A program made the translations under genes and the position numbers. The notes under the pieces are model-generated. The model did no database searches and had not been told where the DNA came from. It worked only from the letters and a program-made list of their open reading frames with translations. From assembly GCA_016839265.1 (NCBI GenBank), contig JAEOUO010000002.1, forward strand, positions 68,778 to 132,777: DNA of 64,000 nt, in the 5' to 3' direction. This DNA comes from Candidatus Odinarchaeota archaeon. GTDB lineage: Archaea; Asgardarchaeota; Odinarchaeia; Odinarchaeales; Odinarchaeaceae. Shown here one piece after another: positions 2,374 through 6,610 of the stretch. Positions within the stretch are counted from its first letter, which is position 1; each line of letters begins with the position of its first letter.

Positions 2374-2880
2374 TTAGAGAATTTTGTCTAAAGCTTTCAC
2401 AGCATAGTCTAGTTCGTCGCTTAACCGTGTTAAATGGTATACTTTACTTGTTAAATGCGTACTATTCAAGAAGAGTTCTAAGTGTTTTTTAATGGTTGCG
2501 GCTATATTCCCGAATAATTCACGGGCAGCATCAGAGTCGTTTGTTTCTTCAGGGGAAGCTATAGATCTCTGCTCTAAAGCTTCGATAGCTATAAGTATTC
2601 TTTTTATATGTGTTTCTTTAACACTTTCCAGACTGATGAGCTTCCCATTGCTATCTTTCAGAACCCCTGAAATCTGGTTTCTAACAAAGTTTATGAACGC
2701 TGGGAGCTTATGACCTATGAATATAACTTCTAGTTTATTTTTATTTTCGACTAGAACCACCGGGCCCTTAGGGAAATTCAGAGAGTTTGGTATTAGAAGT
2801 CCCTTACTCCCACCCCAGTCTCTGATTCTGCTTTTAAAACACTGGTTCAATACTCTACTCTTATTCGAACTGTAAACCAT
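2374..2880 (-). CDS. Hypothetical protein (168 aa), function unknown
   Basis: ORF with a GGGAGGGAGTGA ribosome-binding site directly upstream of the ATG. It has a mixed beta then long C-terminal helix arrangement and no diagnostic motif. It is co-directional with the 299-aa gene upstream. Confidence 0.4.
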   Translation of the reverse strand: MVYSSNKSRVLNQCFKSRIRDWGGSKGLLIPNSLNFPKGPVVLVENKNKLEVIFIGHKLPAFINFVRNQISGVLKDSNGKLISLESVKETHIKRILIAIEALEQRSIASPEETNDSDAARELFGNIAATIKKHLELFLNSTHLTSKVYHLTRLSDELDYAVKALDKIL

Positions 2881-3006: not shown

Positions 3007-3906
3007 TTAATTTTCAACGCGAATTAAATCTTTTCCAGCATTTTTAACAAATTCTAGTAGTTTATTATAATCTCTGAAGCGTATTTTTCCTTCTACGCTT
3101 AAATATAAGTCTCTTGTTTGTATTTCACTCCAACTTCCAAGTTTACTTAAATCAATCTCCTGTCGTCTATTAAGCTCCGTTAATCCTTTTCCAACATTAC
3201 TTCCATGGAAAACTATTTTTTCAATACCCGCGGTGCCGCTTATTTCTCTTGAACATGTTAGGCTCGCTGTTAATACTTCTTCATGGCTTGAAACAAACTC
3301 TTTTATCACGTAAGCGGGGAAGAGAATTTTATATAATCTTATATTATAATTCTTAATTTCATCTAAAATTTCACTGTTTTCTTTAAAACTGTTCTTTATA
3401 ACAGCTACCGCTTGTTTACCATCTAAAAACCCGATCATATTTTTGCAAGCTTCTTGAATAGTTGATTTAACGTTTAACTTTTCAATGTTAAATAAATAAT
3501 ATACGCCAGATTTCAGCGGTTTCTCGATCCATAGGTAAATTTTACCCTGATTTCTTAAATAATCTTGATTAAGCTTCAAACTGTAGTTTCCAGCTGCCTG
3601 TTCAATTTTGTAGAGTATCCACTCCTCCTCCCAGAAAATATTCTCAAAATTTAAAACTTTTTGTAAACCTAAATATAAGCTGATTAATCTAGGAAGCTTC
3701 TTATGGTCTAAGCCTGCTGCAAGTATTTCTTTTAGTTTAGAGCCTGTTAACCCTAGATACTTATAAAATTCTGTAAGTTCACTTTGACTGTACTGTTTCA
3801 ATAATTTTATAAGCGGTGTTCTATCCGTCGAAGTTAAAACGTTCACTTTTTTCATAACTGTTCTTCCTAATTCTTGATAATTAAAAATATTTAATATTAC
3901 CTCCAA
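3007..3906 (-). CDS. Hypothetical protein (299 aa), divergent from the small GTPase gene
   Basis: Long ORF with an archaeal TATA-like region in the shared divergent intergenic space. No recognisable catalytic motif. Confidence 0.45.
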   Translation of the reverse strand: MEVILNIFNYQELGRTVMKKVNVLTSTDRTPLIKLLKQYSQSELTEFYKYLGLTGSKLKEILAAGLDHKKLPRLISLYLGLQKVLNFENIFWEEEWILYKIEQAAGNYSLKLNQDYLRNQGKIYLWIEKPLKSGVYYLFNIEKLNVKSTIQEACKNMIGFLDGKQAVAVIKNSFKENSEILDEIKNYNIRLYKILFPAYVIKEFVSSHEEVLTASLTCSREISGTAGIEKIVFHGSNVGKGLTELNRRQEIDLSKLGSWSEIQTRDLYLSVEGKIRFRDYNKLLEFVKNAGKDLIRVEN

Positions 3907-3954: not shown

Positions 3955-4509
3955 TTGAATCACACATATAGCTTTAAAATTCTTTTACTAGGGGACCCCG
4001 CGGTTGGTAAAACATCACTCATCCACAGATTTATTCAAAACAGTTTTAACAGCGATTATAAAGCAACTATAGGTGTTGATATCATGAGTAAAACACTTCA
4101 AATAAACGAGGTCACGGTGAAACTTTCATTATGGGATATTGCCGGACAGGATAAATTCCGACTTTTCAGAAATGTTTTTTACAGAGGCGCTTCAGCCGCC
4201 ATCATCGTGTTTGATTTAACAAGAATTTCTTCTTTTAACAATTTAAATAACTGGGTTAACGAGCTTCATATGTATGTTAATGTTAAAATACCTTTCATTA
4301 TTATAGGTAATAAATTAGACTTAGACTATATGAGAAATGTTGAGAGAGAGGCCGCTTTAAAATATTCTGAGGGATTAAGATCACCTTATTTAGAGACAAG
4401 CGCGAAAACAGGTAAAGGTGTAAACGAGTGTTTCACCGCTATTTCAAGACAGTTACTTAAAGAAGCTTTAACCTCTACCCGCCACTTTGAAAACACTATA
4501 TATAGTTAA
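3955..4509 (+). CDS. Ras-superfamily small GTPase (Rab/Ran-like)
   Basis: All five G-box motifs are present in canonical order: G1 GDPAVGKT, a switch-I Thr in YKATIGVD, G3 DIAGQ, G4 GNKLD, G5 ETSAK. It is 184 aa and apparently starts at TTG. Confidence 0.85.
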   Translation: MNHTYSFKILLLGDPAVGKTSLIHRFIQNSFNSDYKATIGVDIMSKTLQINEVTVKLSLWDIAGQDKFRLFRNVFYRGASAAIIVFDLTRISSFNNLNNWVNELHMYVNVKIPFIIIGNKLDLDYMRNVEREAALKYSEGLRSPYLETSAKTGKGVNECFTAISRQLLKEALTSTRHFENTIYS

Positions 4510-4562: not shown

Positions 4563-5006
4563 TTGAAACTTGTAGAGTTGACTAGTAAAGTTGTAGATTG
4601 TCTCAAAAAATCATCTAAACCACTATCTGCAGTTGAAATCACCCGTAAAATAAATTTGCCTATTGAAAAGAAGAGACGGATTTACGATGTCTTAGACGTG
4701 TTAGAAGTTTTAAATATGATAAAAATCTCTAGACGCGGTAATGAAAAACTAGCTCAATGGTTTTCGGCGGAGAAAACTGTTTTAAAAGAGTCTTTAACTG
4801 TTGAGAAAAAATTGGAAGATAAACCTCACTGCGTGGTTAATGTTGATCTTGTTTTTCCCTCATCTGATTACAAGAATCTGAGTAATCAAACCTGGCAGGA
4901 AATGATGGTTAGGGATGTTAAAAGAAATATTAAAGGTTTATTAGATATAATTGTAAATGATATTAAATTAATGGAGGCTAAGAGAGTTTTAGCCACCAGT
5001 CAATGA
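4563..5006 (+). CDS. E2F/DP-like winged-helix DNA-binding protein
   Basis: The N-terminal ~65 aa align with the E2F/DP DNA-binding winged helix. LTSKVVDCLKKSSK..LSAVEITRKINLPIEKKRRIYDVLDVLEVLNMIKISRRGNEKLAQW matches the E2F pattern LtTKFvsLL...vLdL..aA..L.v.qKRRIYDItNVLEGIgLIeK.sKN.iqW, including the RRxYD recognition-helix signature. It apparently starts at TTG with a GAGGAA ribosome-binding site. It lies 53 nt downstream of the GTPase on the same strand. Confidence 0.55.
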   Translation: MKLVELTSKVVDCLKKSSKPLSAVEITRKINLPIEKKRRIYDVLDVLEVLNMIKISRRGNEKLAQWFSAEKTVLKESLTVEKKLEDKPHCVVNVDLVFPSSDYKNLSNQTWQEMMVRDVKRNIKGLLDIIVNDIKLMEAKRVLATSQ

Positions 5007-5663: not shown

Positions 5664-5900
5664 TTATGTCGACGGTAAACTCTGAATTTTATATACTAAA
5701 CCGTTAGCTCTTTTTAACTCCGCGGCTAATCTAGCTGCTATAAATTTTTCTCTTACAGGCGCAGTATCTGGTATAGAAGTGTATACTACTCTTTTTTCTT
5801 GATCAAGAATGATTATACACGAGTTTTTATCAGCTTCAGCTACCGGCTTTAACTCCCCCTCTGTTGTCACGCAGTAAATTTGCTGAGTCATGTTAACCAC
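5664..5900 (-). CDS. Single gelsolin/villin-type domain protein (short)
   Basis: QQIYCVTTEGELKPVAE..NSCIIILDQEKRVVYTSIPDTAPVREKFIAARLAAEL follows the gelsolin-repeat pattern (LqIWRVe...LvPVP...GDaYILd....iy.W.G..ss.dEk.aAa.lA.eL). At 78 aa it is shorter than a typical 100-120 aa repeat, so the N-terminus may be mis-called. Confidence 0.45.
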   Translation of the reverse strand: MVNMTQQIYCVTTEGELKPVAEADKNSCIIILDQEKRVVYTSIPDTAPVREKFIAARLAAELKRANGLVYKIQSLPST

Positions 5901-6013
5901 ATTTTCGTAGTTTAACTACATATAACCATAAATAATATTTATACTTTTCTACATTTCTATAATATAAAAATATATAAATACAGTGTCTTAAAAAATAAAA
6001 GCTGGTAATCATT

Positions 6014-6610
6014 ATGAAATTTATTTTAACCGGTGTTCCAGGAGCTGGAAAATCTACTATTTGCAGTAAACTCGTTGAGAAAACCAGTGACATTCATATA
6101 GTTAATTATGGTGATATGATTTTTGAAGAAGCTAAAAAATTATACTCAAATATTATTCAAGCACGAGAAGACACGCGTAAACTTCCTAGAAAAAAATATA
6201 AAGATATACAGATTGAAGCGGCTAAAAAAATCAGTTTAATAGAAGGGAATGTGATAATAGACACGCATATGTCGCTTAAAACGCCCTACGGGTTTTACCC
6301 TGGATTAATCCCGGAAACACTTCATATAATTCAACCTGATGGGATAATTATTTTAGAGTTTAATCCAAAGGATGTCATTACTAGAAGGGAGAGAGACAGA
6401 GCTACCGGTAAACGGCTTACACGCGACAGGGAGAGTGAAGATGAAATAGTTCTACATCAACAAGTGAATCGAATGTACGCTATCAGCTACTCTGCTATAA
6501 ACCAGTGTTATATTAAAATAATAGATTTAACATGGCCTCAAGAATATGAGTTTCAACATACAGAGTTCGCTGCAGAAAAGATATTACAGCTTTTAAATTT
6601 TAGAATATAA
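6014..6610 (+). CDS. adk: Adenylate kinase, archaeal type
   Basis: N-terminal P-loop ILTGVPGAGKSTI is typical of archaeal AdkA. The 198-aa length fits. Confidence 0.8.
   Translation: MKFILTGVPGAGKSTICSKLVEKTSDIHIVNYGDMIFEEAKKLYSNIIQAREDTRKLPRKKYKDIQIEAAKKISLIEGNVIIDTHMSLKTPYGFYPGLIPETLHIIQPDGIIILEFNPKDVITRRERDRATGKRLTRDRESEDEIVLHQQVNRMYAISYSAINQCYIKIIDLTWPQEYEFQHTEFAAEKILQLLNFRI

Follow-up and report, generated by a model that had tools for sequence, protein, structure and literature searches.

The window analysed here, a 64-kb stretch of Odinarchaeota DNA (G+C 36%), carries a gene for a 75-residue protein in which the gelsolin/cofilin actin-binding fold is smaller than in any version seen before. 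The coding sequence of this protein, which we refer to as mini-gelsolin, lies at 5664..5891 on the minus strand (ATG 5891-5889, stop TAA 5666-5664), and homology and fold place its product in the ProGel-type gelsolin/cofilin family of Asgard archaea. We consider it likely that mini-gelsolin is a stand-alone, C-terminally minimised gelsolin/cofilin domain, the Odinarchaeial counterpart of ProGel, and predict that it binds the cell's own actin independently of calcium. Family membership is assigned because three lines of evidence agree, namely the matches of an Odin-only profile, a profile-profile comparison, and the AlphaFold fold. The protein stands alone, its 75-aa ORF is closed on both sides, and it is encoded in an Asgard genome, as is characteristic of the single-domain members of the family. 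A preliminary description of the locus had proposed a stand-alone, unusually short gelsolin-type domain of the Asgard kind, and this is supported by the fold, by homology to Asgard gelsolins, and by the Odinarchaeia taxonomy.

Pfam and NCBIfam scans of the window protein returned no usable family, and a Pfam scan of seven short-clade members likewise returned none. The search against the Pfam Gelsolin model suggested in the preliminary description (PF00626, gathering score 21 bits) came back empty, neither the window protein nor any of the seven short-clade members giving a match at E<=10. The sole Pfam match was to Cofilin_ADF (PF00241), with 12.9-13 bits and an E value of 0.08-0.09 over profile positions 70-109 only, which is below the gathering score of 22.4 bits for the ~125-position ADF-H domain. 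Sequence searches of the PDB with Odin-only queries (phmmer and profile) were marginal, the yeast cofilins giving E values of 0.02-0.1 and Thor ProGel (7c2f_B) 0.21. The Odin-only HMM, built from four sequences, found 26 proteins at E<1e-3 (best 5e-8) among 1.84 billion cluster representatives. All but one of these (25/26) are Asgard-gelsolin-like by sequence pattern, the exception being P0008, a repetitive 590-aa protein. They comprise single-domain proteins of 87-113 aa, 1DGelX-like proteins of 280-320 aa, and two-domain proteins, and the named matches come from Thorarchaeota, Hodarchaeum, "Promethearchaeota", and Odinarchaeum. When ten of these profile-search relatives were scanned, eight matched PF00626, three of them above the gathering score (P0009 with 43 bits, P0007 with 31 bits, and P0025 with 24 bits). 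Comparison of the short Odin clade with non-Odin Asgard gelsolin domains, including Thor ProGel, by hhalign gave a probability of 99.5% and an E value of 1.4e-22 over residues 2-75. Searched against solved structures, the joint family profile matched Thor 2DGel3 (2e-15) and Thor ProGel 7c2f_B (1e-13), and also the 2DGel proteins of Loki and Heimdall, villin, adseverin, and gelsolin.

Modeling with AlphaFold2 (AF2), run on alignments of 4 and of 20 sequences, gave the same topology both times, b-b-b-b-long helix-b, with a mean pLDDT of 85; all five models of the second run lie between 82.7 and 84.9. The strands comprise residues 3-8, 14-17, 26-30, and 35-39, followed by the helix (46-62/63) and a last strand (68-71). 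The five strands form a mixed sheet packed on the long helix, which runs roughly parallel to them, and structure prediction thereby returned the gelsolin-type fold of five strands and one long helix that had been anticipated. In a Foldseek search of the PDB, the top match was the Thor ProGel chain of a complex with rabbit actin (E 1.2e-6, TMq 0.83, rmsd 1.7 Å, 75 columns). Matches 2-50 are all domains of gelsolin, adseverin, villin, fragmin, severin, or Asgard 2DGel proteins, and no cofilin is among the best 50; 30 PDB chains have E<=1e-3.

A match to the gelsolin repeat over the whole length, as had been claimed, does not hold: the sheet and the long helix are covered, but the last ~12-15 residues, which form the GEEPxxF helix, and the W-x-G motif are absent. 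In the AF2 models the chain stops four residues past the last strand ("YKIQSLPST"), and the short C-terminal helix is missing. Other family members run on for ~12-25 alignment columns with the motif "xDxGEEPxxF(L)", which forms the gelsolin repeat's short helix and normally covers the other face of the sheet. The absent segment corresponds to the last ~12-15 positions of the Pfam gelsolin model. Mini-gelsolin also has 5-9 residues fewer than the family in the loop that connects strands 2 and 3. As judged from the alignments, the shortness is due to the C-terminus together with this trimmed loop, and not to the N-terminus.

Strand 4 of gelsolin domains ends in a signature motif, W-x-G ("DWG"), where cofilin has W-x-P (PMC7444086). 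In mini-gelsolin S39-I40-P41 takes its place, aligned with W-K-G in Asgard gelsolins and W-S-P in cofilin, leaving a protein without the gelsolin Trp but with cofilin's proline (P41). In the alignments, the stretch that begins here, S39-I40-P41-D-T-A-P-V-R-E-K-F50 (codons at 5742..5777, minus strand), includes a cofilin-like P-D-x-A-P-V-R-x-K at the helix start and is aligned with "TWSPDTAPVRSKM" of yeast cofilin. Among the Odin relatives the W position is occupied by W, by F/Y, or by S/A, and these proteins form a graded series. An 88-aa member (P0006) keeps the C-terminus "EEGEEIEEL" and has W; members of 78-79 aa (P0045, P0005) have a short tail and F or Y; and in members of 72-75 aa (P0044, P0001-4) the tail is absent and the residue is S or A. 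We read the series as a correlated loss of the short helix and of the Trp that presumably packs with it. Mini-gelsolin is a minimal variant of the known Asgard family rather than a different kind of system.

Conservation is highest in the long alpha-helix, residues 46-63 (VREKFIAARLAAELKRAN; 5703..5756, minus strand), which is present in both AF2 models. Helix and N-terminal cap together make up the most conserved stretch, A44-P-V-R47-x-x-F50-I-x-A-R54-x-A-x-E-x-K-R61, and the invariant columns of the helix are R47, F50, I51, A53, R54, A56, E58, K60, and R61. The long helix is the actin-contacting element in gelsolin G1, ProGel, and cofilin. HMMER aligned residues 32-70 with residues 81-120 of yeast cofilin, with 18/39 positions identical, and placed R47 and K49 opposite cofilin R96 and K98, which are essential actin-binding residues. 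R47 is invariant in the family alignments A2, A3, and A9, and K49 is nearly so. Thor ProGel has F at the R47 position, and for that reason the argument from a cofilin-like R-x-K pair is not transferable from ProGel.

The residue between the two basic positions varies among Asgard proteins. At codon 48 (5748-5750, minus strand) all 72-79-aa Odin members have an acidic residue, E or D (VREKF, VRDKF, VRERF). The remaining single-domain and 1DGelX-like Asgard proteins have a basic residue or Q there (VRKKF), and the two calcium-binding domains of Thor 2DGel3 both have E ("AREKF", "VDEKF"). We take this position to correspond to the Glu of the gelsolin type II calcium site; the acidic residue 48 may be a remnant of a partial calcium site or a coincidence.

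With sheet and long helix kept, the helix starting P-D-x-A-P-V-R47-E-K49-F would bind the organism's own Lokiactin-type actin in the manner of ProGel and cofilin. Its target would be actin monomers, bound weakly, and/or the sides of filaments, and binding without calcium control could modulate filament stability or bundling. We infer actin binding, the binding mode, and calcium independence by analogy with characterised relatives. In gelsolin domains the C-terminal part supplies one backbone ligand of the type II calcium site. Thor ProGel, which is without calcium sites, binds actin at the gelsolin G1/cofilin site, the cleft between subdomains 1 and 3, and bundles filaments calcium-independently (PMC7444086). 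Calcium independence would be the default expectation for mini-gelsolin, because ProGel does without calcium sites and the C-terminal part of the domain is missing here. Actin binding itself is not to be assumed, since the short C-terminal helix and the W of W-x-G are missing. Gene context gives no functional support either, because the neighbours are housekeeping genes: we found no actin, profilin, or other cytoskeletal gene near mini-gelsolin, and no gelsolin paralog and no actin within the 64-kb window.

The same losses, of the short helix and of the W-x-G motif, would also be expected of a degenerate or repurposed gelsolin-fold relic, a ProGel homologue that has lost actin binding and whose helix or exposed sheet face binds another partner or dimerises. 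Both strand faces carry hydrophobic residues, so one face may need a partner, and the missing PF00626 match and the housekeeping gene context fit such a protein as well. Moreover, the genome of Odinarchaeum LCB_4 also encodes a full-length 1DGelX-type gelsolin, OdinLCB4_005275, which could cover the actin function. We nevertheless regard a relic as unlikely. Purifying selection on the gene is strong, most of all on the helix, through which all characterised relatives bind actin. The cofilin-type R-x-K pair is kept, and in the structural search the full length of the chain aligned best with ProGel in its actin-bound form. Those gelsolin-like domains that do not bind actin, such as that of Sec23, sit in large proteins and do not stand alone (PMC7444086).

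A good deal less probable is that mini-gelsolin is a true ADF/cofilin (ADF-H) member, a miniature cofilin that would sever or depolymerise filaments. This reading draws on the sub-threshold Cofilin_ADF match, the only one in Pfam, and on the yeast cofilins as best PDB sequence matches, in which the 18/39 identities span a strand-helix segment including PDTAPVR-K; in addition, Pro41 is at the position of the W-x-P proline of cofilin. However, the cofilin matches are non-significant (13 versus 22.4 bits) and cover half the protein only, and the exact "PDT" is not kept in the orthologs, which have PDN or PEE. A 75-aa protein with a single helix has no room for the extra helices of a ~125-residue ADF-H domain, the best 50 structural matches are all gelsolin-type, and the significant homology is to Asgard gelsolins.

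Read as an Odinarchaeial counterpart of ProGel, mini-gelsolin resembles the Thorarchaeota protein (PDB 7C2F chain B; PMC7444086) in being a stand-alone Asgard single domain with the same strand order and the same long helix, and, by analogy, calcium control is not expected. The two differ in that ProGel has 92 aa and keeps both the short C-terminal helix "EGSEPAAFLDLL" and W-x-G (LWRG), whereas mini-gelsolin ends right after the last strand, has S-I-P and a shorter strand 2-3 loop, and shares ~16% identity with ProGel. The closest sequence relatives outside the short clade are Asgard gelsolins of the 1DGelX type (27-36% identity), with which mini-gelsolin shares the motif APVR-KFI-AR and the last strand YK(V/I). 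In these proteins of 280-320 aa the gelsolin domain is complete (IWKG, GEEPxxF) and is accompanied by a Pro-rich linker and, at the C-terminus, by domain X; mini-gelsolin has none of these extras. Thor 1DGelX severs filaments (PMC7444086). ADF/cofilin proteins (PF00241; yeast Cof1, PDB 1CFY/4KEE) belong to the same structural superfamily and have the same actin-binding long helix; T-x-x-P-D-T-A-P-V-R-x-K occurs in both, and the W-x-P proline is present. Cofilin differs in its size of ~140 aa, its additional helices, and its N-terminal actin-binding extension, and there is no significant global similarity. Eukaryotic gelsolin repeats (PF00626; gelsolin, adseverin, villin, fragmin) have the same core fold but, unlike mini-gelsolin, occur in 3-6 tandem copies, are calcium-regulated, and carry the short helix and W-x-G.

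One of the 26 profile matches, P0017, is OdinLCB4_005275 itself, a 286-aa protein that UniRef names "Gelsolin-like domain-containing protein" and that is encoded in the same LCB_4 genome as one of the 75-aa orthologs. This makes the 75-aa protein the second member of the family in LCB_4, one that has escaped annotation, and the idea that mini-gelsolin is the sole gelsolin-family protein of Odinarchaeum is refuted by this 1DGelX-type gelsolin.

ProGel (92 aa), 1DGelX, and 2DGel have been described and characterised for Thorarchaeota, and for Odinarchaeota "similar architectures" or "orthologous sequences" are mentioned generically (PMC7444086; bioRxiv 10.1101/768580). As of 2022, Odin was reported to be without 2DGels, that is, the two-domain calcium-regulated gelsolin (PMC9433394). 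In the literature searched, we found no description of a 72-75-aa form without the short helix, although this exact protein may be among the Odinarchaeota sequences to which Akil et al. 2020 refer.

The 78-aa ORF from which the preliminary description started is present at 5664..5900 on the minus strand, where it begins with GTG and has the translation MVNMTQQIYCVTTEGELKPVAEADKNSCIIILDQEKRVVYTSIPDTAPVREKFIAARLAAELKRANGLVYKIQSLPST, in which all strings quoted there are found. On the opposite strand at 5664..5900, no rival ORF of at least 40 aa was found. The start of mini-gelsolin is most likely the ATG at 5891, three codons downstream of GTG 5900, since all orthologs begin at this ATG, and the protein would then have 75 aa and not 78. 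The GTG is contained in a Shine-Dalgarno-like GTGGTT (5895..5900, minus strand) located 5-7 nt ahead of ATG 5891, which we read as a putative ribosome-binding site; in a four-genome upstream alignment the ortholog versions are GTGATT or GGGATT. An N-terminal extension is impossible because an in-frame TAG (5916..5918, minus strand) closes the frame, the stop-to-stop ORF being 5667-5915. The shortness had been put down to either a minimal variant or a wrong start. The minimal variant stands, and the start was indeed slightly wrong, but its correction shortens the protein, and the alternative upstream in-frame start that was to be looked for is precluded by the TAG. A wrong start or a missed N-terminus as the cause of the shortness is ruled out by this in-frame stop and by the ortholog starts. 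Longer public gene calls exist for two orthologs, P0031 (87 aa) and P0032 (96 aa), and their upstream start codons are not conserved.

Upstream of the gene, a BRE/TATA-like archaeal promoter element, GAAAAGTATAAATATTA, lies at 5933..5949 (minus strand), ~49 nt ahead of ATG 5891. Its core, AAAAGTATAAAT, is identical in all four Odin genomes compared, and its likeness to the archaeal TATA consensus points to a putative promoter. The element is part of a divergent intergenic region of 122 bp (5892..6013) between mini-gelsolin (minus) and the adenylate kinase gene (6014..6610, plus). Two blocks of this region, TGTATTTATATATTTTTATATT and AAAAGTATAAATATTA, are nearly invariant across four Odin genomes; they are probably back-to-back TATA-type promoters for the adenylate-kinase-like gene (plus) and mini-gelsolin (minus). 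Mini-gelsolin would be a small monocistronic gene, transcribed from a conserved TATA-type promoter of its own.

Four close relatives were found among 5.8 billion proteins, all of them 75 aa long and one 100% identical to the query, and every named close relative is from Odinarchaeota/Odinarchaeia. The ortholog in the closed Ca. Odinarchaeum yellowstonii LCB_4 genome, OdinLCB4_000100, is annotated as "hypothetical protein", and public records of short-clade proteins in general are "hypothetical" or unnamed. Orthologs with 63-84% identity occupy the same genomic place in four other Odinarchaeia assemblies, LCB_4 included, the most distant syntenic ortholog being 63% identical and 72 aa long. A related-locus search with the Odin alignment gave matches in two Odinarchaeia genomes only, and mini-gelsolin orthologs were found in Odinarchaeia records only.

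Gene order was compared in LCB_4, two other MAGs (RPA3 and HHBFW), and one more distant assembly. The shared order is LarA, isocitrate/isopropylmalate dehydrogenase, a radical-SAM/SPASM protein, the adenylate-kinase-like gene, mini-gelsolin, a PDCD5-type dsDNA_bind protein, an E2F/DP winged-helix protein, and a Ras GTPase. In the core of this arrangement, adenylate kinase and mini-gelsolin diverge, mini-gelsolin is followed on its own strand by the PDCD5-type gene, and the E2F/DP winged-helix gene points toward the latter. The 75-aa orthologs align without gaps and stop at the same codon, and their pairwise dN/dS is 0.07-0.18 at dS values of 0.7-2.9, which are saturated or near-saturated. Mini-gelsolin is a real gene under strong purifying selection, because synteny and length are kept, dN/dS is low, and both the promoter-like and the Shine-Dalgarno-like elements are conserved. 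From the small size, below that of any described gelsolin domain, and from the "hypothetical" or unnamed public annotation, one might suspect a spurious ORF or a pseudogene, the fragment left when a recent mutation cut a longer gelsolin gene. Either is scarcely credible given that three 75-aa orthologs share the stop position despite such dS values and with dN/dS this low, that more distant Odin relatives are also short (72-79 aa), that the promoter-like element is conserved, and that the fold is predicted with confidence; a recent truncation is effectively refuted by dN/dS and the conserved stop.

Several neighbours have features of their own. Three genes from mini-gelsolin, at 3955..4509 (plus), the window encodes an intact Ras-family small GTPase of 184 aa (Pfam Ras, 178 bits). 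Its ortholog in the closed LCB_4 genome is split into two ORFs (94 and 83 aa), and in the RPA3 MAG it has no tblastn match, the flanking genes there being only ~450 bp apart (comparison coordinates L001 7380-7918 and L003 5336-5782). Within the clade, the Ras GTPase gene seems either to be in decay or to be dispensable. Next to it are an E2F/DP-family winged-helix protein (4563..5006, plus; 147 aa; PF02319, E 6e-9) and, adjoining mini-gelsolin, the PDCD5-type dsDNA_bind protein (PF01984; 5012..5386, minus). Both contain eukaryote-associated domains, and their position is kept in all Odin loci examined. Two further ORFs on the minus strand, 2374..2880 (168 aa) and 3007..3906 (299 aa), have orthologs that are 58-87% identical in other Odin loci, and neither has a Pfam match at E<=0.001.

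Eukaryotic actin disassembly relies mainly on gelsolin and cofilin, and the Asgard single-domain ProGel proteins are a proposed record of their common ancestor. It is possible, though on balance doubtful, that the 72-79-aa Odin clade represents the smallest natural actin-binding gelsolin/ADF-H module, a two-layer sheet-plus-helix core of gelsolin type that functions in the absence of the short helix and the conserved Trp and has cofilin's proline and R-x-K actin-contact motif. If true, the clade would come close, in a living organism, to the minimal gelsolin/cofilin ancestor that Akil et al. postulated or, alternatively, would be a streamlined derivative in a thermophile, showing how much of the fold actin binding can spare. 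Should actin not be bound, mini-gelsolin would be just a divergent small paralog, and its interest modest. Because Pfam models and annotation miss the short clade, Asgard actin regulators are being undercounted. With its mixed gelsolin and cofilin features in a natural minimal core, the protein is useful for work on the structure, function, and evolution of actin regulators, and it offers a compact, probably thermostable object for testing gelsolin-like against cofilin-like features and for studying Odinarchaeial actin regulation. A conserved 72-75-residue form without the short helix and the Trp, in which the long helix and the critical basic residues known from cofilin are nevertheless kept, would show how small the functional core of this fold can be.
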